Source of the DNA: Candidatus Methylomirabilis oxygeniifera
GTDB taxonomy: Bacteria > Methylomirabilota > Methylomirabilia > Methylomirabilales > Methylomirabilaceae
DNA: 32,000 nt
Assembly: GCA_000091165.1 (NCBI GenBank)
Contig: FP565575.1
Span: 270,001 to 302,000 of the forward strand
Direction: 5' to 3'
Part shown: positions 892 to 31,580 of the stretch, one piece after another
How the letters are laid out: each line of letters begins with the position of its first letter
Position numbering within the stretch: the first letter of the stretch is position 1
Translations under genes and position numbers: made by a program
The notes under the pieces: model-generated
The model's database searches: none
What the model was told of the DNA's origin: nothing
What the model saw: the letters and a program-made list of their open reading frames with translations, nothing else

Positions 892-1791
892 ATGATCCGT
901 TATAAGGGCGCGAAACGGTGGTTCCTACAAGGGTGCCTTACAGCGTCTTTGCTCCTCACGGTCATGGTGCGACCGGGTACGGCGGTGATGCAGTCGGATA
1001 TCCACATCTCGGACAATGGAACCGTGTATTGGGCGCAGCGCAACGACGGTTCTTCCGGGAAGGTGCGGGTGACCACCGTCGGTCTTGGGGCCAGCACCGG
1101 CGCGATCAATACGAGCGCAGCGCTGGCGCAGGATGGGACGCTGACCGCCAGCGGAACGGTGAATCCGTTGTTTGCGCTTGGCAATGTGCGGCGGACCGGA
1201 ATCTTTGCGTGCACCATTCCGGGAACGTTCGATCCGTCCGCTAATTCAGGGAATGGATCGTGGAATGTGGGTGGATCTGTGATCAACGGCTTTAGTGATG
1301 TGCCAAACCTGACCGATCTCTCCAACAACTTGGGTGGGGTTCCATCCGCTCAAACCGGAGTGAATCAGTTCGGATTCAACACTGCCACCCCAACGACCTC
1401 TATCGCAAAGGGTGCCCCAACCCCTTCTGACGGGTTTACGCTGAACACCGGTGAATGCGTGATCTACGTCCTCAATAGTGCATCTTTGCTCACCCCGGGG
1501 ACCACGCTGACCGGTGCAGGCGCGTCTGCCGGATTCATGGATAACTTCATTACCGGGACCGTGCAGTTGACGACCGGGAAGACGGATACTGTGGCGAAGT
1601 TCCTTCCCACCACCACCACGACGACGACTACGACGACGACGACTACGACGACGACCACCACGACCACCACGACGACGACAATCCCCCCGCCGACGATTCC
1701 AACGACTGGAGAGTGGGGGATGATGATTTTCGGGGCGGCGCTGCTCGGATTTATGGCCTGGATGACCCAAGCCAGGCGGTCGATTAAGTAG
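892..1791 (+). CDS. secreted protein with 24xThr linker and IPTLxxWG / IPTL-CTERM-type C-terminal sorting signal
   Basis: ATG 892 follows a strong SD, GGAGAGGAGGA (876-886); the track ORF starts at in-frame ATG 865. The N-terminus has a signal-like segment, KRWFLQGCLTASLLLTVMV. The C-terminus IPTTGEWGMMIFGAALLGFMAWMTQARRSIK is a motif, a hydrophobic helix and a basic tail. A strong terminator follows. Confidence 0.85.
   Translation: MIRYKGAKRWFLQGCLTASLLLTVMVRPGTAVMQSDIHISDNGTVYWAQRNDGSSGKVRVTTVGLGASTGAINTSAALAQDGTLTASGTVNPLFALGNVRRTGIFACTIPGTFDPSANSGNGSWNVGGSVINGFSDVPNLTDLSNNLGGVPSAQTGVNQFGFNTATPTTSIAKGAPTPSDGFTLNTGECVIYVLNSASLLTPGTTLTGAGASAGFMDNFITGTVQLTTGKTDTVAKFLPTTTTTTTTTTTTTTTTTTTTTTTTIPPPTIPTTGEWGMMIFGAALLGFMAWMTQARRSIK
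1609..1680 (+). repeat. imperfect ACS trinucleotide run encoding 24 consecutive Thr
   Basis: There are 24 Thr codons (acc/acg/act/aca mix) from 1609 to 1680, directly followed by IPPPTIPTTGEWG. Confidence 0.95.
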
Positions 1792-1890: not shown

Positions 1891-4023
1891 ATGGTAGCGT
1901 CAACCGATGAACCGGAGATGGACACACGCCGTGGACGGATCGAGGTTATCAGTACCGCTGTTGTCCTCGCCCTGATCTACGGAGTACTCCTTTGGCAGTT
2001 CCCGCCCTCGCTTCTCCTGCTGCCGACGATCACAGCCGGCGGCGACACACTCTTTCACTATGTGACGGCTGCCTACCTCAGGGATCATCTGTTGGCGCAT
2101 GGCCGGATTGTGGGCTGGATGCCCGGTAATCTGGCCGGTTTTCCGCTGTTCCTCTTTTACTTTCCGCTGGCCTTCCTCGCCGTTTGCGGGCTGAGCCTTA
2201 TCGCTCCATTCCCGGTTGCGTTTAAACTGGGGACCGTTGCCGGGACCTTCGCGCTTCCGTTGGCTTCGTACGTGGCCCTCCGCTGGATCGGTCTGGCTTA
2301 CCCGACGCCTGCTATCGGAGCGCTATTCACGCTCTGTTTCCTCTTCATCGAGAGCAACACCATGTGGGGCGGCAATATCCCCAGCACACTGGCGGGAGAG
2401 TTCGCTTACAGCTTCTCCCTTCCCCTGCTGGTCCTCTTCCTCGGCGCCCTGTACCGGGGCGTGGAGAAGCGGCGGCACGCATGGTTGGGCGCGGGACTGC
2501 TCGCGCTGGTGGGTTTCAGCCACGGTTACACCCTGGTCATGGCGGCGGGGGCGGGGCTGTTCTTCCTCGTGTTCAATCGCGATATGTGGGCGACGCTCTG
2601 GTACCTCTTGCGGGTCTATGGGATCGGGGGGCTGCTGCTGGGTTTCTGGATCCTGCCGCTGGTCATGTCTTTGCCCTACACCTCCGGATGGCCCATCAGT
2701 TGGCAATTTACCTCGTTGCTTGAGCCGCTCCCGATCATCCTTTGGCCGATCGTCGCCGCCGCGATTGTCACGATCGCCGCCGCGTTCCGGCGACCGAAGC
2801 GTCCCGCGTCGAACCAGGGCCAGGAATGGATGAGCAAGGTCCATTACCTGAGCTTTCCGGTCGCGCTTGGGATCCTGCTGTTTTCGTTGGCCGCCCGCCT
2901 CAATCTGGTAGACATCCGATTCCTTTCGATCGCCCAGTTCTTCATCACGCTGGTCGCGGCCGCCGGATTCGGAAAAGCCTGGCCGCGTCTCGCGCCCCGT
3001 CTCCGGGCGATCGCCCTGGTAGTCCTCGCCCTCATCACTATCCTGTGGGCGCTCTCTCAGCAATCCTACAGCCGTGACTGGATTGTCTCAAACTATCGCG
3101 GGATGGAGTCGGCTCCGCTGTGGAAGCAATACCGGGTTCTGAACGAGGTGCTGAAGGGAGGGCCCCAGGATCCGCGGATCATGTATGAGCATTCCGGGAA
3201 GCACGAAGGCGCCGGTACCGTCCGCGCCTTCGAGGCCCTCCCGCTGTTTTCCGGCCGGTCCACGCTCGAAGGGGCGTACATGCAGTCCTCGCTGAGCGCG
3301 CCGTTCATCTTTGATCTCCAGTCAGAGCTGACGCCGACGCCATCGTGCCCCTTTCCGCAGTATCGGTGCAGCCGTTTCGATCCCGATCGGGCTGTTCGCC
3401 ATCTGGTCCTCTTCAACGTGAAGGGGTTCATCGCCGTCTCGTCGGAGGTCAAGGCGGCCCTGGATGCCCATCCGGCCTTCCGGCGGGCATTGAATGTTGA
3501 GCCGTACGCGATCTATGAGGTTCTTCCAGGTAATGGGCGGTATGTCGTCCCGCTCTCGTTCCAGCCGACCGTCTCCGGTGCGAAGGACTGGAAACGTCTG
3601 GCCTATGACTGGTTCCAGCGACCGGAATGGGCGGAAGTTCCACTGATTTTCCCACAAGGCGATGAGCCGCCACCCACGGATGCGGTTGCCTTCCATGGGC
3701 TGGAGCAGGGACCGGTCAAAGTCCCGTTGGCCGATGCCTGCCATGTTGAGGAGACGGTCCTTGAGCAGGAGATTCGCTTCCAGACCGATTGCCCGGGCCG
3801 GCCGCATCTGGTCAAGGTGTCCTATCATCCCAAGTGGAGGGCGGAGGGCGCCGATCGGATTTACCTGACGTCGCCGGCCTTTATGGTGGTCTATCCTGCG
3901 GACAAGCAGGTCAGGCTGGCGTTCGGCGACCGTTGGCCCGATACGCTTGGTTGGATTGCGACGGCGTTGGGTCTGCTGTGGCTGCTCGCAGAGGCAAGGA
4001 CGGCAGCCCCGCGACGCCGCTGA
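1891..4023 (+). CDS. large polytopic membrane protein, YfhO-like / GT-C-fold glycosyltransferase-like
   Basis: About 12 hydrophobic segments over some 420 aa are followed by a soluble domain of about 290 aa and a terminal TM. The C-terminal signature ...LVKVSYHPKWRAEGADRIYLTSPAFMVVYPADKQVRLAFG...LGWIATALGLLWLL matches the YfhO-type end. I prefer ATG 1891, because the track TTG 1852 lies inside the upstream terminator. Confidence 0.6.
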   Translation: MVASTDEPEMDTRRGRIEVISTAVVLALIYGVLLWQFPPSLLLLPTITAGGDTLFHYVTAAYLRDHLLAHGRIVGWMPGNLAGFPLFLFYFPLAFLAVCGLSLIAPFPVAFKLGTVAGTFALPLASYVALRWIGLAYPTPAIGALFTLCFLFIESNTMWGGNIPSTLAGEFAYSFSLPLLVLFLGALYRGVEKRRHAWLGAGLLALVGFSHGYTLVMAAGAGLFFLVFNRDMWATLWYLLRVYGIGGLLLGFWILPLVMSLPYTSGWPISWQFTSLLEPLPIILWPIVAAAIVTIAAAFRRPKRPASNQGQEWMSKVHYLSFPVALGILLFSLAARLNLVDIRFLSIAQFFITLVAAAGFGKAWPRLAPRLRAIALVVLALITILWALSQQSYSRDWIVSNYRGMESAPLWKQYRVLNEVLKGGPQDPRIMYEHSGKHEGAGTVRAFEALPLFSGRSTLEGAYMQSSLSAPFIFDLQSELTPTPSCPFPQYRCSRFDPDRAVRHLVLFNVKGFIAVSSEVKAALDAHPAFRRALNVEPYAIYEVLPGNGRYVVPLSFQPTVSGAKDWKRLAYDWFQRPEWAEVPLIFPQGDEPPPTDAVAFHGLEQGPVKVPLADACHVEETVLEQEIRFQTDCPGRPHLVKVSYHPKWRAEGADRIYLTSPAFMVVYPADKQVRLAFGDRWPDTLGWIATALGLLWLLAEARTAAPRRR

Positions 4024-4131
4024 ATCCAGTCAGGGGTTAGCCGGACATGTGGTCCCCCCCTTCGCTAAATAGGGAGACGAAAGCGGCACATGCGTGTCGT
4101 CCCCCTGGCTTGCTCAAGGGGGGAGGGGAGA

Positions 4132-4166
4132 GAAAACCCCCTTGTATCCCCCTTTACGAAAGGGGG
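4132..4166 (+). repeat. G/C-run palindromic repeat family, copy 1 (+ orientation)
   Basis: GAAAACCCCC-ttgtat-CCCCCTTT-acg-AAAGGGGG: an 8-bp stem with a 3-nt loop. The same architecture occurs at 9842-9874, 9932-9965 and 31032-31081, and inverted at 4282-4317. Confidence 0.85.
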
Positions 4167-4263
4167 AGGAGAAGAGGTGGCCTTTGCCAAAGTGGGAGAA
4201 GGTGTGGAGGTAGCTTTTGCCAAAGAGGGAGAAGGTGTGGAGGTAGCTTTTGCCAAAGAGGGA
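4165..4263 (+). repeat. 33-bp tandem repeat, about 3 copies
   Basis: 4198-4230 and 4231-4263 are identical (gaaggtgtggaggtagcttttgccaaagaggga). 4165-4197 is a diverged copy, about 25/33 by eye. Each unit carries a degenerate CTTTTGCCAAAGAG palindrome. Confidence 0.9.
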
Positions 4264-4281
4264 GGAGATCCAGCGTATGGT

Positions 4282-4317
4282 CCCCCCCTTTGGAAAAGGG
4301 GGGCTAGGGGGGTTTTC
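4282..4317 (-). repeat. G/C-run palindromic repeat family, copy 2 (inverted orientation)
   Basis: The reverse complement reads GAAAACCCCCC-tag-CCCCCCTTTT-cc-AAAGGGGGGG. With copy 1 it forms an inverted pair flanking the 33-bp tandem array. Confidence 0.8.
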
Positions 4318-4427
4318 CCTTCGGCAACGCAGGAGAAAGAGTGTGCATATCTGTCGCAGACAGGTTCAGCCGCGCTAATTCCGGAAGAACCACGTCATCT
4401 CGTCTCTTTCCTATTCCCCTATTTCTC

Positions 4428-4455
4428 TTGACACCGGAAGATGGACTGTGATATT
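4428..4455 (+). promoter_or_regulatory. candidate sigma70 promoter with extended -10 (TTGACA-16-TGtGATATT)
   Basis: -35 TTGACA at 4428-4433, a 16-nt spacer, TG at 4447-4448, and -10 GATATT at 4450-4455. This implies a leader of about 190 nt before ATG 4646. Confidence 0.4.
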
Positions 4456-4645
4456 GACTGTTGAATTGTAGATTGTCGATTCGCGTTCTGCCGCACATTG
4501 GCAGCGTCGCGGTTACGGTGAAGATGTTCTCATGATCAGGATCTTTATCTTTGGCTGACAGATTGTAGACGCAGCGTCACGGCCCCCGGTTGTGGCCGCC
4601 CTCAGGAAGGGGCTGCCGACCCGTGGGCAGAAGGGAGGGGCTTGT

Positions 4646-5683
4646 ATGCGCGCACGATACCGGGGCATGGTCCTCGCCGGCCTACTCGCGACGGCCGTTC
4701 TGATCCTGCCCACACCCGGCCTGGCAGCCGATACCTGCAGTCTCTCCGGCGTGTATCCCTTCAGCACCTTCGCCGATCCCGGGAGCGCGACCCAGGCCCT
4801 CGGGACGATGACCTTTACCACGGGCAGCTCGTGCAGCGTTCCGGGCACAGTGGCGATCGTGGGGTCCTACAAATCGGTCGGCGGGGTGGAGACCCTCTTC
4901 AGCGTCAGCGGCACGTACTCGGTGGACAGCACCGGACGCATGACGACGACGATTGCGGGGGATATCAACATCTGGGGGCAAGTCGCCCTGCAGGGGAGCC
5001 CCCCGGCCCGCAGCTTCCCATTCGTAGGCGCCTTCACCGGTAACCTGATCCTAGCCGGGGTGGCGGTAAGAGAGAACCTGGAACTCGCGACCGGACCGGC
5101 AGGCGCGGCAGGCGCGACAGGACCGGCAGGCGCAACGGGCGCTGCGGGAACGGCAGGCGCGGCGGGGGCGAGAGGCGCGACCGGACCGACAGGACCGGGA
5201 GGAGGCGCGACCGGCCCGACAGGACCGGCAGGCGCAACGGGCGCTGCGGGAACGGCAGGTGCGGCAGGCGCGACCGGGCCGACCGGCGCGACCGGCGCGG
5301 CAGGGCCGGTCAGGTCGAGCGTCCTGACCGGCGGGAACGCTGGGCTTGCCAATTTTCTTGCTCTGTCGTATATGGGTCCGAGAAATGGGACAGATAGTGC
5401 GACACGTGCGAACGTCGAGGTTCCTATGCCTCTGGGCTCGGCAAGCGGCTTCAGTGTGAATCTAAAAACTCCCCCTGGTGCCGGGACGTCGCGTAAGTTC
5501 ACCGTTTTGAGGAGTGCGACTCCTACACTCACCTGTACGATCGCTGGTACCGGCACGACATGTTCGGCCGCAGGGTCTCAGGCGTTCAGCTCTGATGATA
5601 TGCTGGCAGTAGAGCACTCAGCCTCCACCAGTGCTCCTGCCCCGTCACCAGGATCCTGGTCCCTGCTGTATGCGGTGCCATAA
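4646..5683 (+). CDS. secreted collagen-like (Gly-X-Y) repeat protein, paralog 1
   Basis: ATG 4646 follows GGGAGGGG, and the paralog shares the same MRARYRGM start. The signal peptide is [28 protein letters not shown]. After an N-terminal domain of about 120 aa comes a 73-aa Gly-X-Y tract (5093-5311), then a C-terminal domain of about 120 aa. A terminator follows. Confidence 0.9.
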
Positions 5684-5701
5684 ATATCTCTACACGTTCA
5701 A

Positions 5702-5734
5702 CCCCCTGGTCGTCGGACCAGGCGGGGTCTTTTT
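5702..5734 (+). terminator. Rho-independent terminator
   Basis: CCCCCTGGTC-gtcg-GACCAGG(c)GGGG followed by tcttttt. Confidence 0.8.
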
Positions 5735-5831
5735 GGCTGATAGATCGAAGGCGTAGTTTCACGGTCCTCGGTTGTTGCCGCCCTCGCGAAGAAAGGGTCG
5801 CCAAACCGTGGGACGACAAGGAGGATCGAGT

Positions 5832-6866
5832 ATGCGCGCACGATACCGAGGCATGGGCCTTGCCGGTCTGCTCACCGCGGCCGTTCTGATCCTGCCCACA
5901 CCCGGCCGGGCAGCCGATACCTGCAGTCTCTCCGGCGTGTATCCCTTCAGCACCTTCGCCGATCCCGGGAGCGCGACCCAGGCCCTCGGGACGATGACCT
6001 TTACCACGGGCAGCTCGTGCAGCGTTCCGGGCACAGTGGCGATCGTGGGGTCCTACAAATCGGTCGGCGGGGTGGAGACCCTCTTCAGCGTCAGCGGCAC
6101 GTACTCGGTGGACAGCACCGGACGCATGACGACGACGATTGCAGGAGATATCAACATTTGGGGGCAAGTCGCCCTGCAGGGGAGCCCGGCCCGTCTCCTG
6201 CCATTCGTTGGGGCCTTCACCGGTGACCTGATCCTGGCCGGGGTGGCGGTGAGCGAGAATCTGAACCTCGCTGCCGGACCGACCGGTCCGACCGGACCGA
6301 CCGGACCCGCCGGCGCGACCGGACCCGCCGGCGCGGCAGGCGCGACCGGGGCGACCGGCGCGACCGGGGCATCAGGAGGCGCGACAGGTCCGACCGGACC
6401 GGCAGGCTCGGCAGGCGCGACCGGCGCGACAGGCGCGGCGGGTCCGACCGGAGCGACCGGCGCGACAGGTGCGGCAGGGCCGAGCGTGGCGAGTGTCCTG
6501 ACCGGCGGATCGGCTGGAGAGGATCTTGCCATTCCTGGTGCTAAGTCATATATGGGTCCGGGAAACGGGCGAGATAATGCGACACTGACTAATGTTGAGG
6601 TCCCTATGCCTGCGGGCACTGCAAGCGCCTTACGTGTCAAGCTGAAAACTGCCCCTGGGGCCGGGAATTCGCGTAAGTTCACCGTCTTGCGTAGTGGGAA
6701 TACCAGTGCGCTCACCTGTACGATCGCTGATACTGGAACTGACTGTTCGATTCTCGCAGGGTCTCAGGCCTTTACTAGTTTGGAGAGGCTGGCGGTAGAG
6801 CACTCAGCCTTTGGGGCCGCCCTGTCACCAGGATCATGGTCTCTGCTGTATACGGTGACGCCGTAG
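5832..6866 (+). CDS. secreted collagen-like (Gly-X-Y) repeat protein, paralog 2
   Basis: ATG 5832 follows AAGGAGGA. The architecture matches paralog 1. The Gly-X-Y tract is 70 aa (6276-6485). A terminator follows. Confidence 0.9.
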
Positions 6867-6890
6867 CTATAACCATCTCTACACACACAA

Positions 6891-6922
6891 CCCCCCTGGT
6901 CGCCTGACCAGGGGGGTTTTTT
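6891..6922 (+). terminator. Rho-independent terminator
   Basis: CCCCCCTGGTC-gcct-GACCAGGGGGG (a perfect 11-bp stem) followed by tttttt. Confidence 0.9.
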
Positions 6923-6930
6923 GTCCGCCT

Positions 6931-8889
6931 GTGTCTGATCGTCTGTTGTCATTCCGATCGCACCCGGTGGCGGTCTGTCTGGCGATCGTGGGGCTGGCCG
7001 GACTTCTGTACGCCGGTTCGCTGCTCAACGGCTTTGCCTTCGACGACCATCTCCTGGTCGAGACCAATCTCCAGTTTCGCTCGATCGAGGGGCTTACGCA
7101 GTTATTCAGGTCCGGCGGGTGGCTGACGTATCGCCCAATCCGCACCGCCTCGTACGCGATCGACTATGCCCTGTTCGGGCTCAATCCCTCCGGTTTCCGG
7201 GCGTTCAACATCCTCTACCACGCCCTGAACGGGGTCCTGGTCTTCACCGTGCTGCGGACGATCCTGGGGGTGACCCGCCCCGCCTTTCTCACGGCGCTGC
7301 TCTTCATCGTCCATCCTGTCCAGACCGAGTCGGTCGCCTACATATCCGGCCGGCGGGACATCCTGTTCACCCTGTTCTATCTGACAGGGTTCTATGGATT
7401 CGTCCGATACCGGGCGACCGGCAGGGGACGGTGGCTGTACCTGACGGGGATCTCGTACTATCTCGGCCTTCTTTCGAAGGAGATGGCGATTACCCTCCCG
7501 CTCCTCTGTCTTGCGTACGATCTGGTCCGTTCGATGCCCGAGGGCGGGGAGGGAGACCGGCGATCGTGGCGGGCCCTCAGGGAGGCGGGGCTGCGGCTCT
7601 GGCGGGATCATCGTCGTCTGTACCTGGTCATCGGGGCGATCTTTTCCGCGACGGCCTATTACTTTGTGGCGCTCTTTCGCGTCACGCAACGGTTTGATCT
7701 GTGGGGCGACGGACTGTGGCCGACCGTGCTGACCAGCGTCACGATCATGGGCCACTATCTGACACTGCTGCTCTGGCCCGTGACCCTGAACGTGGATTAC
7801 TCGTTCAACGCCTTTCCGGTGCCGGAGACCCTCCTGGACGGCCGGGTCCTGATGGCGATTGCCGCGGTGGGCGGGAGCTGGTGGGCGATCTGGAGGGGCC
7901 TGGCGAACCATCGGTGGGCGGCATTCGGGGGTCTCTGGTTCTTTACGACACTGCTGCCGGTCGCCCAGATCATCCCCCATGATGAGATCGTGGCCGAGCA
8001 CTATCTGTACCTGCCGTCGATCGGCGTCTGTCTGGCAGCCGCCATGCTGGCGGAGGGGCTGCCAGAGCGTATCCGGCAGCGCCGGGCTGTCACGGCAGTC
8101 TTCGGGCTCGTGGTGGTTCTGCTCGGATTCAGGACGGTCATCCGCACCCGCGATTGGAAGGACGACCTGACACTTTGGACCAGGACGGTCGAGACCGCCC
8201 CGGCATCCGCGAGGGCGCGCCGAAACCTGGGTCGGCTGTATATGATTCGGGGGCGTCATCAGGAGGCCGCCCAGGAGTTCCGGGAGGCCCTCCGGATCGC
8301 GCCGAACGATGCGCCGACCTGGAACAACCTGGGCGCGATGCTGCTTGAGCTGGGGAACCTCGACGGGGCGGAACAGGCCTTCACCGGAGCGCTTCGCCTG
8401 AACACCCTGCCGCTTGATGTCAGGATCAACCTGGGAATCGTCTCCCTCAGGCGCGGGCGGACGGCGCAGGCCGAGGCGTACTTTCTCGCGGCCCTGGCGT
8501 CGTCGCAACTGCCGCCGTCGCAGCGGGCGCAGGCGCTGAACAACCTGGGCATGGTGCGCGCCACGCAGGGGCGGTCGGCTGAGGCCGAGCAGGCCTTCAA
8601 AGAGGCGGTCGCGCTTGCGCCCGGCGATGCCGATGCCAGGCGAAACCTGGGATTGGCCTATCTCGAGAAAGGGCAGATGCAAGCGGGGATTGCGGAGCTG
8701 GAGGAGGCCGTCCGGTATAAGGCCGCAGACCCGACGCTTCATCACCTGCTTGGGGAGGTCTATCATATGCAGGGGCAGCAGGATCGGGCCGTGGCCTCTC
8801 TGAGAAAGGCGCTGAGCCTGAAGGGCGACCTGGCGGAGGCGCGAGAGTTGCTGGATTCGATTCTCCGCTCTTCCCCAACGACTCCATGA
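6931..8889 (+). CDS. PMT/TMTC-like GT-C membrane glycosyltransferase fused to C-terminal TPR repeats
   Basis: The N-terminal 420 aa or so are polytopic, with loop-1 motif GFAFDDHLLVETN followed by YRPIRTASYAIDYALFGLNPSGFRAFNILYHALNG. The C-terminal 230 aa or so carry several TPR units (...ARRNLGRLYMIRGRHQEAAQEFREALRIAPND...). The start is GTG 6931, with no clear SD. Confidence 0.75.
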   Translation: MSDRLLSFRSHPVAVCLAIVGLAGLLYAGSLLNGFAFDDHLLVETNLQFRSIEGLTQLFRSGGWLTYRPIRTASYAIDYALFGLNPSGFRAFNILYHALNGVLVFTVLRTILGVTRPAFLTALLFIVHPVQTESVAYISGRRDILFTLFYLTGFYGFVRYRATGRGRWLYLTGISYYLGLLSKEMAITLPLLCLAYDLVRSMPEGGEGDRRSWRALREAGLRLWRDHRRLYLVIGAIFSATAYYFVALFRVTQRFDLWGDGLWPTVLTSVTIMGHYLTLLLWPVTLNVDYSFNAFPVPETLLDGRVLMAIAAVGGSWWAIWRGLANHRWAAFGGLWFFTTLLPVAQIIPHDEIVAEHYLYLPSIGVCLAAAMLAEGLPERIRQRRAVTAVFGLVVVLLGFRTVIRTRDWKDDLTLWTRTVETAPASARARRNLGRLYMIRGRHQEAAQEFREALRIAPNDAPTWNNLGAMLLELGNLDGAEQAFTGALRLNTLPLDVRINLGIVSLRRGRTAQAEAYFLAALASSQLPPSQRAQALNNLGMVRATQGRSAEAEQAFKEAVALAPGDADARRNLGLAYLEKGQMQAGIAELEEAVRYKAADPTLHHLLGEVYHMQGQQDRAVASLRKALSLKGDLAEARELLDSILRSSPTTP

Positions 8890-9841: not shown

Positions 9842-9926
9842 AAAACCCCCTTCATCCCCCTTTCTCAAAGGGGGAAATATGGTGAATACCCCTCTTTGGA
9901 AAAGAGGGGCGAGGGGAGATTTGAAT
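9842..9926 (+). repeat. G/C-run palindromic repeat family, copy 3 (two hairpin modules plus GGGGAGATTTGAA end)
   Basis: AAAACCCCC-ttcat-CCCCCTTT-ctc-AAAGGGGG at 9842-9874. A second perfect 9-bp hairpin, CCCCTCTTT-gga-AAAGAGGGG, is at 9889-9909. The end cgaGGGGAGATTTGAA matches the end of the ispA copy. Confidence 0.8.
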
Positions 9927-9931
9927 GATCT

Positions 9932-9965
9932 GAAAACCCCCTCAATCCCCCTTTTTCAAAGGGGG
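9932..9965 (+). repeat. G/C-run palindromic repeat family, copy 4
   Basis: GAAAACCCCC-tcaat-CCCCCTTT-ttc-AAAGGGGG. Confidence 0.85.
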
Positions 9966-11024: not shown

Positions 11025-13241
11025 TTACCCCTGACCGGCAGACCTGGACGGGCCGGCCATGCGCGCGTCCAGTCCGGCGAATCGAGATCCGACAAGAACG
11101 GTCAGCAGCAAGGTCACCGCTCCCAGCCAGAGCAGTCCGGTCTTGTACCATGGCGGTCGGTAGATTGCCGTGAGGCGATGCGGACCTGCCGACACCTCGA
11201 CCCCGATGAAGCTCGGTGACACCATGAACGGGCGCGCGTCGCGTCCATCAATGGTGACGTGCCAGTTCGGATGGTAGGTCGTCTTGATGGCGATGGTCGC
11301 GGCGTGGGCGCACTCCACCTGCAGATCGAGCCTGCCGGGCAGGATCTGCTCCTCTGTGATTCTCCCGCCGTCCGGGCATCCCGGGCCGGACGCGTCGAAG
11401 TATCCCTCGTCTGGTGAGGGGTACTCGTATCGAATGAACCGCCCGGCCGCAGGATCAGGGCCCTCGAGCCACCGGCGATTCTCGTCGAGCAGGGTCGCCT
11501 GAGAATCGGTGCGAATCCCCCTGACGATATTGACAAACCCGGCGTATCCATCGGTCTTTGCCTCGTAGAGCGTGTAACGGCCGGTCCTTTCCAGCGGTCG
11601 CAGGAACTCCGGCATGGCGAGACCGGCCGGTGCGACCACGTAGCGCGCATTAAAGACATTGTAGTGGGCCGGATCGCGATCGTCAAAATGCCAGATCATG
11701 TCGGAGTTGAGGGAGAAACCCGAATACGGGGGCGATACCGCGGGGATCCGGTAAAAGGTCAGCAGGTCGTAGAAGTGCAGGTCTCCAAACTGTACCGTCT
11801 TCCCCCAGTTGGCCCGCAGGCCGACATAGGTTCGTCCTGGCGGCAGATCTTTGAGCGCCGCTAAGATCGTTCTGGCGTCGGCGTCGGCGTCGACGGCACG
11901 CTGTGTACGTTCCATCCACTGTGCATTCAGCGCGTAAAAGTGTCGTCTCTCTGCTAACGGCGGGATCAACAGAACGACAACGGCACATACGCCGACGGCC
12001 CCGCGCCAACGGGTGACGGCAGGGCTGAGCAGATGCCACAACCACTCTCCTCCCAGTCCGATCAGCATGATCGCCCCGATATTCACGCCGCCGATGAAGC
12101 GATGATACAGCATGCCTTTATGCATGGGGATGAGGTCGGCCAGCGCTCCCCACGTGACCCGTCCAAAAAACAGCAACAGCCACATCCCGAAGATCGACAG
12201 GCCGAGCGCTCCGTGCCGGCCTCGACGCGCGACGGCGGAGGCGATTCCAAGCGCCAGGAGCGCCGTCAGGACCGGAAGGCGGTCGAAATCCAGCAGGTCC
12301 CCGTTGATCAACCAGCCCAGAATGGCGTGAGCCCCGAAGGAGTCGTACTTCCAACGCTGAAGGTACGGGCTGAAACCCAGGAACGGATTGAACAGTACGA
12401 AGGGGAGCCAGAAGTACGACGTGATGACGGCCGAGACTCCCGCGACGATCAGTAATCGCATGATGCGCAATCGGACGTTGTCCCGCCGTATGCCGACCAG
12501 AAGGGAGGCGACCATCGTCAGCCCCATGATAAAGCTATACAGCAGATGCGATAGAACCAGTGTGGATGCGGCAACGATCGCACCGAGGTAGCCTTGACCC
12601 GTTCTCATAACATGGATCAGACAACCGAGGCTCAGAAACGACAGATGCATCGCCCACAGTTGACTGTACATCCCGAAGCCGCGCCAGATGTAGCTGTCAT
12701 ATTCGAACCCGTAATGATGATCGGCTGAGATCAATGTGGCGCTTGCTGCGGCGACCCCTGCTGCGATCGACGAGAATCCGATCCGACGCATCGACCAGTA
12801 GACGGACAGCGGAAACCCGACCAGGAGCAGATATCGGATGAGATTGAAAAGAGTCAGCAGTTCGAATTGCCCCAGGAGGATGCGGTGCAGCAGCACGACG
12901 GTCAGATGCGGCAGATGCTGATAGGTGCTGGCAATCGGGAACCCAAGCTCAAGCTCAGGGTTCCAGTGATCGATGAGATTGTCCCCCGTCGCCCACGCCC
13001 GGCTGATACCTTGAATGAGCAGAAAATGCACGGCATTATCGTTCAGGCTGGGGATTGGGCGCGAGAGCTCAGGCAGCAGTGTCACGGCATTGAAGAGGAT
13101 TGGGATCAGCAGAAGAAGGACCACGACGCAAGAGCTGTTGTAGGTGACAGCATCGTTGGAAACACGACAGTCAATCCGGTCCGATATAAAAGCGCGGCGT
13201 ATGCTCATTGTCATATACAAAGAATCAGGTCTTGCATTCAC
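11025..13241 (-). CDS. large polytopic membrane protein, YfhO-like / GT-C-fold glycosyltransferase-like (second copy of this architecture)
   Basis: About 450 aa of TM segments are followed by a soluble domain and a terminal TM. The C-terminal signature ...IAIKTTYHPNWHVTIDGRDARPFMVSPSFIGVEVSAGPHRLTAIYRPPWYKTGLLWLGAVTLLL is strongly YfhO-like. The start may be GTG 13241, ATG 13214 or ATG 13208. Confidence 0.65.
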   Translation of the reverse strand: MNARPDSLYMTMSIRRAFISDRIDCRVSNDAVTYNSSCVVVLLLLIPILFNAVTLLPELSRPIPSLNDNAVHFLLIQGISRAWATGDNLIDHWNPELELGFPIASTYQHLPHLTVVLLHRILLGQFELLTLFNLIRYLLLVGFPLSVYWSMRRIGFSSIAAGVAAASATLISADHHYGFEYDSYIWRGFGMYSQLWAMHLSFLSLGCLIHVMRTGQGYLGAIVAASTLVLSHLLYSFIMGLTMVASLLVGIRRDNVRLRIMRLLIVAGVSAVITSYFWLPFVLFNPFLGFSPYLQRWKYDSFGAHAILGWLINGDLLDFDRLPVLTALLALGIASAVARRGRHGALGLSIFGMWLLLFFGRVTWGALADLIPMHKGMLYHRFIGGVNIGAIMLIGLGGEWLWHLLSPAVTRWRGAVGVCAVVVLLIPPLAERRHFYALNAQWMERTQRAVDADADARTILAALKDLPPGRTYVGLRANWGKTVQFGDLHFYDLLTFYRIPAVSPPYSGFSLNSDMIWHFDDRDPAHYNVFNARYVVAPAGLAMPEFLRPLERTGRYTLYEAKTDGYAGFVNIVRGIRTDSQATLLDENRRWLEGPDPAAGRFIRYEYPSPDEGYFDASGPGCPDGGRITEEQILPGRLDLQVECAHAATIAIKTTYHPNWHVTIDGRDARPFMVSPSFIGVEVSAGPHRLTAIYRPPWYKTGLLWLGAVTLLLTVLVGSRFAGLDARMAGPSRSAGQG

Positions 13242-13514
13242 ACATAGTCCCGACTAGATTATTGTATACGAACCTGTCCTGTAAACTCTTATTTACGCTT
13301 TGACAGGCTCAGGGTGAACGATATGGGTATCGAACGCAGGAATATCGGTCCGTTCGCGCCGGGTCCGCTGAAGCCGTTGTGAGTAAGGGCGAACCGCACG
13401 AGCAGGGGTGTGCAGGACAGGCGCATAGGTTTCGCCCATTGCGTATCGAAGCTTATGTCCGGGGTATGCGCCACCTCAATGGAGTCTCTAGCCGTGTGGG
13501 CTCCGACAAATCGC

Positions 13515-13543
13515 TTGACAAGGTTTTTGATCGTGCCTACAGT
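13515..13543 (+). promoter_or_regulatory. candidate sigma70 promoter (TTGACA-17-TACAGT)
   Basis: Perfect -35 at 13515-13520, a 17-nt spacer, and -10 TACAGT at 13538-13543. It lies about 80 nt upstream of ATG 13626. Confidence 0.45.
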
Positions 13544-13625
13544 ACGAGGGATTTCGCAGCATTCGCGGAACCAGGGTGTCTGTTAACCGCGTGACACGCC
13601 CTACATGATAGGGGAGGAGGTGGCT

Positions 13626-14576
13626 ATGAGATCGACCGTCCGAACTGTTCTGATCTGTTTGGTGGTGAGCCTTGGCGTCATCGTGAGCGCCGAGAAGAGC
13701 TGGGCCGGATTTGTGTCCGGGGGGTCCCGACTCATCTATTACTACAGTCAGCGTTCCCTCGTGAACCCGGGGGCCGGGAGCGGCACGGGTGCTACGATCC
13801 TGGCCGTGAAGAACAATTCGAGCGATGCAACCAAGGTGCAGATGAAGATCTTCAACGGCTCGACCTGCGCCGGCTTTGGTCCGGTGACCTTCGATCTGCC
13901 CGGAAATCAGAGCCTTCGGATCAATGTCTCGGATCATGTCTCGGCGACCCCGTTCCCGGAAGGGTGGGTGGATCTGTATGCGGTCAATTCGGGAGGCACG
14001 CCGATCCGATGGGATTACCTGACCGGGAAGTTCACGGTACTCGATTTTGGAGGGTCCTCCACGACTGTGGCGATCTCTCAGGCGGCCGCCATGTTCTCCG
14101 ACGCGAATCGGTCGAGCGACCCTCAGGGCGGGGTCATCGCCGATAACACCGACGCGCGGACGTGGGCGCCGCACCTTCAATCCGTCGACTTTTGGGCCAC
14201 AGGGGGGCCGTTTAACATCAGCGATCGTCTGGTGGTGGTTCCGGTCTCCAGTGTGCCTGGGACGGCCCCGGTCGCCTCTACCAGCGGGATCGGTCTCTCC
14301 TTCAAGACCTTGGCGGGTGCGGAGACACTGAATACGAGCGCCACCACTTCCTGCATGCTGGCCTCGTCTCTCCCGAGCCTTCACCCGGGTTTCTCCGCCT
14401 CCTACCCGAATGGCGCCACCGTGACGGATGGGGGCACTCTCAATCTCGTCGCTGACTCCTCCGGCACCAATAAAGGCAATGCCGGGTGGCTGTTCGAGAT
14501 GGCGACGTCCCCGCTGCTTCTGGGTGTGCATCCGATACAAGCATGGGCGGAGTTGGCGGTGGACGGTCACGAGTAG
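13626..14576 (+). CDS. secreted protein of unknown function (orphan), immediately upstream of the exosortase-family gene
   Basis: ATG 13626 follows GGGGAGGAGG (13611-13620). The signal peptide is MRSTVRTVLICLVVSLGVIVSAEKSWA. Third-position GC is high in this frame. I recognise no family and see no C-terminal TM sorting tail. Confidence 0.8.
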   Translation: MRSTVRTVLICLVVSLGVIVSAEKSWAGFVSGGSRLIYYYSQRSLVNPGAGSGTGATILAVKNNSSDATKVQMKIFNGSTCAGFGPVTFDLPGNQSLRINVSDHVSATPFPEGWVDLYAVNSGGTPIRWDYLTGKFTVLDFGGSSTTVAISQAAAMFSDANRSSDPQGGVIADNTDARTWAPHLQSVDFWATGGPFNISDRLVVVPVSSVPGTAPVASTSGIGLSFKTLAGAETLNTSATTSCMLASSLPSLHPGFSASYPNGATVTDGGTLNLVADSSGTNKGNAGWLFEMATSPLLLGVHPIQAWAELAVDGHE

Positions 14577-14631
14577 TCGTATCGGGCGCTCCGGATTGTC
14601 CGCTCGTCCTCACACACCTGCAACTCGCGAA

Positions 14632-14670
14632 CGCCTTCCCAATGGGCTGTGGAAGCCCATTGGGAAGGCG
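14632..14670 (+). other. perfect 17-bp inverted repeat (hairpin, 5-nt loop) between the orphan secreted-protein gene and the exosortase gene
   Basis: CGCCTTCCCAATGGGCT-gtgga-AGCCCATTGGGAAGGCG. There is no clean T-run after it. The right arm contains the SD-like GGGAAGG just before TTG 14671. Confidence 0.9.
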
Positions 14671-15645
14671 TTGCTGTATGGGCTCGGGCTCATGTTGGTG
14701 CAATGGGGGCTCGAGCGGGGTACGTTTGTCGCCATCCTCACCGATCGCCTGGCGCAGGGCGTGCTGGTTGGTCTGCATCTGTTGGGTGTGCCGGCGAGGC
14801 TTGACGGGCTGGTGCTCCACGCCGGCGCGCTGAGTCAGCCGGTCTCGGCAAGCTGTCTGGGCCTGATCGCGGTGACCGGCTATCTCTCCGGCCTCCTCGC
14901 CGTACCGGCCGACTGGACGACGCGCTGGCGCGGGATCCGGCGCGACCTGCCGTTGCTGGTTCTTGGGAATGCGATTCGACTGTCGGCGCTCGGGATCCTC
15001 ATCACCGTATCTGTCTCAGCCTTTCAGTTTGCGCATGCGATTCTCATGGGGGCGGTTGCGCCGCTGGCCCTGATCGGGCTGTGGGGCTTCTGGTTCTACA
15101 AGGACCTGGGCGCGCTGTCGGCGTATCCCTGGCGCTTCGCCAGAGACGTGTCCCTCGCGCTGCCTCTGGCAATCGGGCTTTGGTGGCTGCTGCTTGACCC
15201 GTATGCGGTCGGGCTGTCGGTGGTGATCAAGGCGGCCCTGAGCGGCCTCGTCGGGATGCCGATTGTCGGGACCGGGGTGGTGGAGGACGGCTTCAAACGC
15301 CTCCTCGACTTTCAATTGCCGGACGGCGGTTTCCGCATCGAGATGGGCGGCCGCAGCCTGGCCCTCGCTCCGTTGATCGCCTTGATCGGCGCCTCGCCCA
15401 TCCCCTGGACGCGGCGGATTGGGCTGGGAGGTCTCGGTCTGACGATCCAGTTCGGGCTCCATGCCATGGAGGTGGTCGGACTGGTTCTCCTGGGTCGGAT
15501 CGCTCCTCCGGTGGTCCCGGCGGTCGAGGCGCTTTCGGATTACCTCGCCCTTGCCTCCGGTCCGTTCTTGTGGCTGCTGCTCGCGGCTCCGTCTTCAGCG
15601 TGGTGGGCGCTTGAGGGAGAGGGCCGTCGCGCGCGATCTGTCTGA
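14671..15645 (+). CDS. exosortase/archaeosortase-family transpeptidase-like membrane protein (candidate XrtH-type, IPTLxxWG-CTERM-specific), short N-terminus and long C-terminal polytopic extension
   Basis: The motif series matches exosortases. The pre-Cys segment is LAQGVLVGLHLLGVPARLDGLVLHAG...VSASCLGLIAV. The Arg in LGNAIRLSALGIL lies 41 residues after the Cys, the same spacing as ArtA C173/R214. This is followed by FAHAILMG. The start is uncertain: TTG 14671, ATG 14692 or TTG 14596. The track start 14428 overlaps the upstream gene and is not TM-like. Confidence 0.65.
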   Translation: MLYGLGLMLVQWGLERGTFVAILTDRLAQGVLVGLHLLGVPARLDGLVLHAGALSQPVSASCLGLIAVTGYLSGLLAVPADWTTRWRGIRRDLPLLVLGNAIRLSALGILITVSVSAFQFAHAILMGAVAPLALIGLWGFWFYKDLGALSAYPWRFARDVSLALPLAIGLWWLLLDPYAVGLSVVIKAALSGLVGMPIVGTGVVEDGFKRLLDFQLPDGGFRIEMGGRSLALAPLIALIGASPIPWTRRIGLGGLGLTIQFGLHAMEVVGLVLLGRIAPPVVPAVEALSDYLALASGPFLWLLLAAPSSAWWALEGEGRRARSV

Positions 15646-30641: not shown

Positions 30642-31580
30642 TTGACGCCGGAAGAGTTGAGACGATACCTGGACGAGCGGCGGCTGCTGGTCGACGAGGC
30701 TCTGGAGCAGTATCTTCCTCAGGCGAGCGACCCTCCGAAGGAGATCCATGAGGCGGTTCGCTATAGTGTCTTTGCAGGGGGTAAACGGCTGCGACCGATT
30801 CTGATCCTGGCGGCGACAGAGGCGGCGGGCGGACAGATGGAACAGGCGCTGGGTGCGGCGGCAGCCATCGAGATGATTCACACCTACTCCCTGATTCACG
30901 ACGACCTTCCGGCTATGGATGACGATGACTATCGCCGTGGGCGATTGACCTGTCATAAGGTCTACGGTGAGGCGATGGCCATTCTGGCGGGCGATGCGTT
31001 GCTGACGCAAGCGTTCATCCTTCTGTCGGCAGAAAACCCCCCGTGCCCCCCTTTAGCAAAGGGGGGGTGGGGGGATTTGAAGGGGGTGTATGATTCGGAG
31101 GCCCGCCTCATGGTGATCCGGGAAATCGCCGAGGCTGCGGGCAGCAAGGGGATGGTCGGCGGCCAAGTCGTGGATATGCTGCAAGAGGATCGGGAGATCG
31201 ATCTGCCGACGCTCACGTATCTGCACGAGCACAAGACCGGCGCCCTGATCCGGGTGTGCCTGCGCGTGGGAGGCATTCTTGCGTCGGCCGGATCGGAGCA
31301 GATGGAGGCCCTCACCCGCTATGGCGAGCGGATCGGACTCGCCTTTCAGATCGTAGACGATATCCTGGATCTGGAAGGGAGCCTGGAGGTCTTGGGCAAA
31401 CAGGCCGGAAGCGATCTCCGCAAGAAGAAGGCGACCTTTCCGGCGCTGCTTGGGATCGAGGAGTCGCGGCGATGGGCTCATCGATTGGTATCGGAAGCGC
31501 AGGAGGCCGTGGCCGTCTTTGGCGACCGCGGGGTGGCGCTGCAGGCGATTGCCGAGTTCGTTGTCATGCGCCGGGGGTGA
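30642..31580 (+). CDS. ispA: (2E,6E)-farnesyl/geranylgeranyl diphosphate synthase (trans-polyprenyl synthetase)
   Basis: FARM motif LIHDDLPAMDDDDYRRG, SARM motif FQIVDDILD, and KTGALI. The TTG 30642 start sits 5 nt after AGGAGG (30631-30636). The track start 30588 would overlap xseB. Confidence 0.9.
   Translation: MTPEELRRYLDERRLLVDEALEQYLPQASDPPKEIHEAVRYSVFAGGKRLRPILILAATEAAGGQMEQALGAAAAIEMIHTYSLIHDDLPAMDDDDYRRGRLTCHKVYGEAMAILAGDALLTQAFILLSAENPPCPPLAKGGWGDLKGVYDSEARLMVIREIAEAAGSKGMVGGQVVDMLQEDREIDLPTLTYLHEHKTGALIRVCLRVGGILASAGSEQMEALTRYGERIGLAFQIVDDILDLEGSLEVLGKQAGSDLRKKKATFPALLGIEESRRWAHRLVSEAQEAVAVFGDRGVALQAIAEFVVMRRG
31032..31081 (+). repeat. G/C-run palindromic repeat family, copy 5, embedded in-frame in ispA
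   Basis: GAAAACCCCCC-gtg-CCCCCCTTT-agc-AAAGGGGGG-gtg-GGGGGATTTGAA. Read in the ispA frame it gives ENPPCPPLAKGGWGDLK. Confidence 0.8.

Follow-up and report, generated by a model that had tools for sequence, protein, structure and literature searches.

Probable domain-limited gene conversion in a tandem pair of genes encoding putative collagen-like fibre proteins in Candidatus Methylomirabilis oxygeniifera

What makes two adjacent genes almost identical over a single domain and clearly diverged on both sides of it: recombination, selection or an error of assembly? This question is raised by two tandem collagen-like genes, hereafter g1 and g2, located at 4549-6922 of a 32,000-nucleotide stretch of Candidatus Methylomirabilis oxygeniifera (assembly GCA_000091165.1, contig FP565575.1, positions 270,001 to 302,000 of the forward strand), which is called the window and whose first letter is position 1. 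A first-pass annotation had read this patchwork either as gene conversion homogenising the N-terminal domain or as diversifying selection acting on the distal C-terminal domain. The explanation that we hold with considerable confidence is that g1 and g2 are an old tandem duplicate with recurrent conversion of the N-domain and encode a collagen-like fibre with a constant base and two alternative heads.

Identity pattern and gene conversion in the tandem pair

The features of the two units are as follows.

4549..4645, + strand: g1 leader (5' untranslated region) with Shine-Dalgarno sequence GGGAGGGG, diverged from the g2 leader
4646..5683, + strand: g1, putative collagen-like fibre protein of 345 amino acids (aa), CBE67391.1; signal peptide 4646-4726, predicted lipocalin-like N-domain 4727-5086, Gly-X-Y stalk 5093-5311, predicted TNF/C1q-like head (C-domain) 5312-5680
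4693..4956, + strand: probable conversion tract, g1 copy, 263/264 bases identical to 5879-6142
5702..5734, + strand: g1 intrinsic terminator, 10-bp stem with one bulge followed by UCUUUUU, -19.9 kcal/mol
5735..5831, + strand: g2 leader with Shine-Dalgarno sequence AAGGAGG
5832..6866, + strand: g2, putative paralogous collagen-like fibre protein of 344 aa, presumably CBE67392; signal peptide 5832-5912, predicted N-domain 5913-6269, Gly-X-Y stalk 6276-6485, predicted TNF/C1q-like head 6486-6863
5879..6142, + strand: probable conversion tract, g2 copy
6889..6922, + strand: g2 intrinsic terminator, perfect 13-bp stem followed by U6, -28.3 kcal/mol

The units (4549-5734 and 5735-6922) lie head to tail and are 81% identical across their full length in a global alignment. 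Sliding-window alignment showed that their divergence is strongly mosaic and not uniform. In 50-nt segments, identity is 0.94-1.00 across 4694-4993 and fades out by about 5000, versus 0.66-0.86 in the leader, signal peptide, collagen tract, C-domain and 3' end. The coordinates given by the first-pass annotation all hold, including the extension of high identity to about 5000/6186 (segments of at least 0.94 until about 4993) and the tract repeated at an offset of 1186 nt with one base difference. This difference, T at 4722 and G at 5908, exchanges Leu for Arg right before the signal-peptide cleavage site. The leaders, described as diverged, share 66-74% identity with gaps, and the Gly-X-Y tracts do measure 73 and 70 aa. 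The signal-peptide codons just upstream of the tract show the expected excess of differences, with a count of 8 in 47 nt instead of about 9, and the C-domains are closer than the 60-65% protein identity estimated by eye, since 86 of 123 residues (70%) are shared. Furthermore, each unit contains one open reading frame (ORF) and one hairpin followed by a U-run, so that the duplicated unit is indeed a whole gene plus its terminator. No third copy of the unit was found within the window.

The longest exact run shared by g1 and g2 reaches 234 nt. When the 206 differences between the units were shuffled 10,000 times, the longest run averaged 30 nt with a maximum of 69 nt, and none of the 10,000 permutations reached 234 nt. 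Tandem pairs are also present in five other loci, giving six independent contigs with the window: L001 (JGI, with g1 truncated by the contig end), L005 (NCBI GCA_973355545.1), L006 (JGI), and L007 and L008 (both from ENA ERZ4201064). In L005, the paralogues share an exact run of 93 nt, which was matched in 0 of 10,000 permutations. The pairs of L007 and L008 are devoid of long identical runs; the N-domain is still their more similar part.

Trees and quartets computed from five paralogue pairs give opposite topologies for the two ends of the genes. The distance tree of the C-domain consists of a g1 clade and a g2 clade, each with one gene per genome, which indicates that the duplication predates the sampled Methylomirabilis-like lineages. 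In the tree of the 4693-4956 tract, copies group by genome, the window copies being 0.4% apart and the L005 copies 4.5%, and the four genes of L007 and L008 form one group. When the window is compared with L005, L007 and L008, respectively 14, 20 and 25 quartet sites of the tract support grouping by genome versus 0 supporting orthology (12-25 versus 0-1 over the whole range). For the C-domain, 27, 45 and 49 sites support orthology versus 4, 3 and 1 supporting grouping by genome (27-61 versus 1-6 over the whole range). Moreover, synonymous divergence (dS) between the window paralogues falls to 0.014-0.017 in the tract, versus 0.22-0.77 elsewhere in the pair. For the core of the N-domain, the dS between paralogues is 0.017 in the window, 0.034 in L005, 0.14 in L007 and 0.20 in L008, and that between orthologues is 0.15-0.41. 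The dS between paralogous C-domains is 0.32-0.50. Since constraint at the protein level cannot yield such a pattern in the tract, these sequence comparisons strongly support gene conversion that affects the N-domain alone and has recurred at times differing from lineage to lineage. Of the two readings first proposed, conversion of the N-terminal domain is thus the one favoured by the collapse of dS in the tract and by the switch of topology between the tract and the C-domain.

It is very improbable that the N-domains stayed identical merely through stronger purifying selection since the duplication, with no recombination. This domain is the most conserved part among orthologues, with a ratio of nonsynonymous to synonymous divergence (dN/dS) of 0.21-0.32, and selection of this kind would suit L007 and L008, where it is more similar between paralogues in the absence of long runs. 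However, synonymous differences are not erased by selection on the protein, and the dS of 0.017 in the window tract contrasts with 0.34-0.50 in its flanks and with the values found between orthologues; paralogues also share lineage-specific substitutions, at 14-25 sites versus 0-1. A recent duplication, after which leader, collagen tract and head would have diverged extremely fast under diversifying selection, can hardly be credited either. The dN/dS of the heads (0.5-0.8, and about 1.0 in some g2 pairs) would be in line with it, but the divergence of the heads is also synonymous, as their dS between paralogues indicates, and four other genomes contain orthologues of g1-type as well as g2-type heads, which fall into two clean clades.

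The mosaic results from non-reciprocal homologous recombination, in which one copy repeatedly has its N-domain replaced by that of its neighbour. In the window lineage, the most recent of these events covers at least 234-264 bp, fading by about 5000. Heads and leaders escape homogenisation, the heads changing quickly at the protein level. The leaders nevertheless appear, from their sequences, to have been exchanged too: the g1 leader of L005 is g2-like and its g2 leader resembles the g1 leader of the window. Partial conversion is known in bacterial paralogues, for instance in a tandem lipoprotein cluster of S. aureus (PMC2568036) and in RF1/RF2 (PMC4530459). As in these cases, one segment is homogenised and others keep their orthology, and the same logic of incongruent trees applies. 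Unlike them, the tract of g1 and g2 corresponds to one structural domain of a putative three-domain fibre and has arisen independently in several lineages of one genus.

Architecture of the encoded proteins and divergence of their heads

Both proteins carry a Sec-type signal peptide ending in ...PGLA/AD. Their sole match to a sequence family is Pfam Collagen (PF01391), with 32.5 and 33.3 bits for a cut-off of 27.2. No Pfam family was found for the N-domain or the C-domain, including C1q (PF00386) and TNF (PF00229), no Pfam or NCBIfam match was obtained outside the collagen region at E <= 1, and sequence-profile searches of the PDB with both domains returned nothing significant. Nearly all residues of the stalk are G, A, P or T; 12-14 are Thr, at most one is charged, and each of the nine sequences examined is interrupted by one residue (...GGGAT... 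or ...AGGAT...) at the corresponding point. The g1 stalk measures 73 aa in four of four genomes, and that of g2 varies from 64 to 70 aa. As a collagen helix rises by about 0.29 nm per residue, the stalk would span about 20 nm if it adopts this fold. In addition, the g1 collagen tract contains at 5101-5286 an internal 102-bp duplication (1.8 copies, 88% identical) lying across the conserved interruption, and the g1 stalk seems to have grown in this way.

Structures of the two globular domains were modelled as single chains from 19-sequence alignments. The head (about 120 aa) is predicted to be an all-beta sandwich, with a predicted local distance difference test score (pLDDT) of 88. In the PDB, Foldseek matched it with a probability of 1.0 to TNF/C1q jelly-rolls, with a template modelling score (TM) of 0.45-0.59 and 8-16% identity; these include EDA-A1, C1q, C1QL, adiponectin, collagen X NC1, Caprin-2 C1q, the Bdellovibrio Bd2734 fibre tip and Pgp3. 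Much closer matches were found among viral models, where the C-terminal part of Klosneuvirus, Solumvirus and uncultured Caudovirales proteins with collagen repeats resembles the head (TM about 0.8, 22-25% identity). The N-domain (about 120 aa) is predicted to form an 8-stranded up-and-down beta-barrel (pLDDT 84) resembling designed beta-barrels and lipocalins (TM 0.45-0.60 for the predicted model). Two Cys are invariant in the N-domain and two are nearly invariant in the C-domain, as would suit a protein located outside the cytoplasm. The proteins contain no LPXTG, and their C-termini are ...SWSLLYAVP and ...LLYTVTP.

These models suggest a BclA/C1q-type layout (base, collagen stalk, jelly-roll head) for proteins that are not members of those families at the sequence level. 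Signal peptide, stalk and TNF/C1q-like head are all consistent with the surface fibre first proposed, the surface location itself being deduced. The N-domain had been viewed as probably a trimerisation or anchoring module. Since known proteins combining collagen and C1q-type domains have their trimer nucleated by the C-terminal head, it is likelier that the N-domain serves as a common base, anchor or binding module than that it drives trimerisation.

Several known systems share part of this layout. BclA and BclB of Bacillus, like BclA1-3 of Clostridioides difficile, have the same order of an N-terminal part, a Gly-X-Thr-rich stalk almost without charged residues and a TNF/C1q-like head, and a viral protein with a 'BclB C-terminal domain' is among the fold matches of the g1/g2 heads. 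The stalks of BclA are O-glycosylated on Thr and variable in length. However, g1 and g2 have no sequence match to these proteins outside Gly-X-Y, they carry a cleavable Sec signal peptide and a predicted folded barrel instead of a short exosporium-targeting peptide, and their host is a diderm, non-sporulating bacterium of NC10. The C1q/TNF superfamily (C1q A/B/C, adiponectin, collagen X NC1, EDA-A1) also has a collagen stalk followed by a jelly-roll head, and the tandem arrangement of g1 and g2 is reminiscent of the tandem cluster of the C1q chain genes, but the likeness, given the low identity and TM values cited above, is one of fold only. The closest head structures are found in giant viruses (Klosneuvirus, Solumvirus, Fadolivirus) and in uncultured Caudovirales, in collagen-repeat proteins whose head also lies C-terminal to the repeats (TM 0.78-0.84, root-mean-square deviation 2-3 A, 17-25% identity). 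These proteins are often much longer and lack the lipocalin-like N-domain, whereas g1 and g2 are chromosomal, syntenic and flanked by envelope genes. Finally, streptococcal Scl1/Scl2 and Legionella Lcl are secreted collagen-like proteins with a non-collagen globular domain. Compared with them, g1 and g2 reach only 30-38 bits in NCBIfam, via Gly-X-Y alone, for cut-offs of 325-500; they also have another domain order and no LPXTG anchor. Charged residues stabilise the helices of Scl proteins, and the stalks of g1 and g2 lack such residues.

The heads evolve faster than the base. Estimated by the Nei-Gojobori method for a few pairs of these short, GC-rich domains, the dN/dS between orthologues is 0.49 (g1) and 0.82 (g2) for the C-domain, with single g2 pairs at about 1.0. 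Furthermore, head variability reaches 2.9 distinct residues per site in predicted loops versus 1.9 in strands. These values fit an exposed head under relaxed or diversifying selection, so that the diversifying selection first suggested for the distal head receives partial support from the high dN/dS; it is not a rival of conversion, as it had been presented, and may act alongside it.

In the fibre that we envisage, three chains would form a triple helix of about 20 nm nucleated by the C-terminal head, with the N-domain as a constant base and one of two heads at the distal end. Conversion would keep the base matched to a common partner. The divergence of the heads would block recombination there and be favoured by selection, which would keep the two heads apart. 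More tentatively, by analogy with BclA, the Thr-rich Gly-X-Thr stalk might receive O-linked glycans outside the cytoplasm from the GT2, PMT-TPR, PTPS_related and YfhO proteins encoded nearby (see below), and the fibre might be part of a cell envelope bearing a surface layer (S-layer).

One refinement of this explanation, doubtful but worth weighing, is that g1 and g2 encode different chains of one C1q-like heterotrimer whose N-domains are homogenised in order to pack together. The tandem arrangement, the near-equal stalk lengths, the shared position of the interruption in nine sequences and the 70% identity of the heads would all suit such a trimer, and the weaker g1 terminator could permit co-transcription. 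On the other hand, the stalks differ by one triplet, the g2 stalk varies in length among lineages when that of g1 is fixed, and L002, a contig considered below, may carry a single-copy gene.

Relatives, independent assemblies and the weighing of the evidence

An exhaustive protein search revealed that both domains, with collagen tracts between them, recur in dozens of unannotated metagenomic proteins. These distant relatives emerged only by that search, a word-indexed protein search with the N-domain alone having returned nothing. Scans of metagenome contigs yielded no loci, and a scan of genome contigs yielded only the already known L002, a contig of a 'Methylovulum' metagenome-assembled genome. 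This contig probably comes from a Methylomirabilis relative, since its PMT-TPR protein closely resembles, by eye, that of the window.

Two relatives illustrate the modularity of these proteins. P0156 (L010, 5802-6941) lacks a collagen tract and joins the signal peptide and N-domain of the pair (77% identical) directly to an FGE-sulfatase-type domain; its gene adjoins CopC/CopD and a resistance-nodulation-division (RND) transporter in a related organism. It is a third carrier of the N-domain module and possibly an extra conversion partner. The distant member P0034, 42% identical to g1, is found in L012 together with a paralogue 5.5 kb away (6207-7241 and 12784-13815), with a YfhO gene between the two. 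The N-domains of this pair are 68% identical and the heads cannot be aligned by BLASTP. Mobile-element-like genes, RadC and a DnaG-type primase, lie upstream. Because of the P0156 fusion and the L012 pair, the combination of a constant base and a variable head is viewed as a property of the family.

The exact g1 protein (CBE67391.1) is found in the 2.75-Mb reference genome of Candidatus Methylomirabilis oxyfera (2010) and in a 976-kb contig belonging to a separate assembly (ENA ERZ24907703). The exact g2 protein occurs in three independent assemblies, including the reference genome, the assembly of the 976-kb contig and a Logan assembly. Since exact proteins and tandem pairs recur in independent assemblies, an assembly artefact is excluded. 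Such an artefact, whether a single gene expanded in two or a consensus collapsed across paralogues into a false identical tract, would be barely conceivable with the tandem pair on six independent contigs. What could be cited in its favour is that short-read contigs break in this repeat region (the first base of L001, L002 and L014 falls within the upstream gene, and that of L007 and L008 is 11 nt ahead of g1) and that the few differences between L005 and L006, described below, all fall in the N-domain of g1.

Several points weigh against the explanation by recurrent conversion of a fibre base, or against parts of it. Several of the loci compared come from metagenomes assembled from short reads, and contigs of this kind can be chimeric where sequences repeat. 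In L007 (1101-2259) and L008 (1095-2253), which come from the same metagenome, g2 is identical from the leader through the N-domain and the heads are 11% different, a pattern that either recombination between co-occurring strains or chimeric short-read assembly would produce. L005 and L006 show only 3 differences in 6,731 aligned bases, all in the N-domain of g1 (L005 positions 3370, 3506 and 3519). Exchange that is still going on could explain them, as could noise in the consensus of a repeated region; they were tried as micro-conversions from g2, but only one of the three matches the g2 base, so they are treated as possible assembly noise. The tract of the window lies as far from the g1 copies of L007 and L008, the least homogenised genomes, as from their g2 copies, and so points to neither gene as the donor in the last conversion; for the same reason, an early impression that this tract was 'g2-type' (QALG/SYK residues) was dropped. 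The dN/dS values are crude pairwise ones, none of which clearly exceeds 1, and do not prove positive selection. The structural models rest on 19-sequence single-chain alignments, and their likeness to solved TNF/C1q structures is at fold level only (TM about 0.5). P0160, a distant member of the family, has no glycosyltransferase neighbours. Finally, a literature search found no mention of CBE67391 and CBE67392 in any paper.

Partial conversion in tandem paralogues and collagen-like fibres with a C1q/TNF-like head were both already known; the g1/g2 pair is new and uncharacterised. It represents a clean bacterial case of domain-limited concerted evolution, in which one fibre module is repeatedly homogenised and the exposed head is free to diverge, and would show how recombination and selection partition a surface protein. 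Moreover, its N- and C-domains, which have no Pfam family, recur in dozens of metagenomic collagen-like proteins and, for the head, in viral ones as well.

Genomic context and expression signals

The neighbouring genes and the promoter candidate are the following.

892..1791, + strand: exported protein with a signal peptide, a run of 26 Thr and an IPTL-CTERM domain; the same gene precedes the pair in L005
1852..4023, + strand: polytopic membrane protein, Pfam PTPS_related (PF10131), which we take to be GT-C-like; directly upstream of g1, synteny kept in L005 and L006
4428..4455, + strand: sigma-70-like promoter candidate, TTGACA-16-GATATT with TG, consensus match only, about 190 nt upstream of g1
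6931..8889, + strand: PMT/PMT_2 (TMTC-like) membrane glycosyltransferase fused to TPR repeats (PMT-TPR), CBE67393.1
10051..11019, - strand: GT2 glycosyltransferase resembling polyprenyl-phosphate sugar synthases
11025..13241, - strand: YfhO-family membrane protein
14692..15645, + strand: exosortase/archaeosortase-family membrane protein, CBE67400

By gene content, the pair sits in a cell-envelope glycosylation island with many glycosyltransferase genes. Synteny is conserved for the IPTL-CTERM protein, PTPS_related, g1, g2, PMT-TPR, TPR, GT2 and YfhO genes, and a PMT-TPR-type gene lies directly 3' of the collagen-like gene in the window, L001, L002, L005 and L006. This context, in analogy with BclA, suggests more weakly that Thr residues of the stalk are O-glycosylated by the neighbouring polyprenyl-phosphate-sugar/GT-C machinery. 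A prophage origin was rejected on this gene context. The idea that the pair is a remnant of a tail-fibre or fibril module of a phage or giant virus, and not an envelope component, has a remote probability: the closest head structures are those of viral proteins with collagen repeats or of tail fibres (TM about 0.8) and P0034 adjoins RadC and a DnaG-like primase, but the window contains no phage genes, the neighbours of the pair encode glycosyltransferases, a putative S-layer protein, an exosortase and LptF/G, the gene order holds from lineage to lineage and both proteins have Sec signal peptides.

The protein encoded at 892-1791, 2.9 kb upstream of g1, matches IPTL-CTERM TIGR04174 with 29.7 bits for a cut-off of 20.5, and its Thr run is an ACG-codon repeat (1618-1679). 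Because of the order of accessions (g1 being CBE67391 and PMT-TPR CBE67393) and of its domain features, it is probably CBE67388, M. oxyfera's putative S-layer protein. Its exact sequence is absent from the protein collection searched, perhaps due to a Thr run differing in length between assemblies. Neither g1 nor g2 matches TIGR04174; they are neighbours of the S-layer candidate and not its homologues. Gambelli et al. 2021 reported CBE67388 of M. oxyfera as the sole homologue of the S-layer protein that they studied, mela_00855, an exosortase-sorted IPTL-CTERM protein (PMC8671808). No glycans were found on this protein, though glycosylation genes surround its gene, and the authors left two questions unanswered: what else might scaffold the polygonal envelope, and on what the adjacent glycosylation genes act (PMC8671808). 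CBE67400 is likely the enzyme processing the IPTL-CTERM protein of the window.

The locus thus places two putatively secreted collagen-like proteins and a TMTC-like PMT-TPR enzyme beside a putative S-layer gene of a polygon-shaped methanotroph, and g1, g2 and PMT-TPR are concrete candidates for both questions of the 2021 study (PMC8671808). A more ambitious scenario, which we regard as improbable, is that an O-glycosylated fibre of about 20 nm, maybe a C1q-style heterotrimer, is a new component of the S-layer envelope, acting, for instance, as a spacer or anchor between the outer membrane and the rigid S-layer sheets to which the cells owe their polygonal shape, or as a nap on top of these sheets. 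PMT-TPR would then be a bacterial collagen O-glycosyltransferase, and conversion would keep a docking barrel constant as the exposed heads diversify.

A 316-aa exported protein (13626-14576) was considered as the S-layer homologue CBE67388 and rejected, being CBE67399 and lacking IPTL-CTERM. It has no family match, and a 43-nt inverted repeat (14630-14672) separates its gene from that of CBE67400.

Both copies of the pair are complete genes ready for transcription, each having a strong Shine-Dalgarno sequence and a terminator of its own. The promoter candidate is not part of the duplicated unit, and no counterpart of it was matched in the g2 leader. For L001, L007 and L008, conservation of this leader among g2 orthologues is 95-98%, above that of the neighbouring coding sequence. 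An RNA element was considered, but an Rfam search of 3900-7100 gave no match, and the consensus fold of seven leaders is a stem-loop without compensatory changes, so that no such element is claimed. A motif, GATTGTAGA, recurs upstream of g1, around positions 4468-4476 and 4561-4569 of the window.

The 600-bp gap upstream of g1, where an 84-aa ORF was called that is probably spurious, contains a 33-bp tandem repeat (4174-4264, 2.8 copies) located between two copies of a dispersed hairpin, CCCCC(C)TTT-loop-AAAGGGGG(G). The five sites of this hairpin (4148-4166, 4283-4303, 9856-9874, 9947-9965 and 31046-31066) are all intergenic, none being expected in shuffles, and it looks like a palindromic element of the repetitive extragenic palindromic (REP) type.

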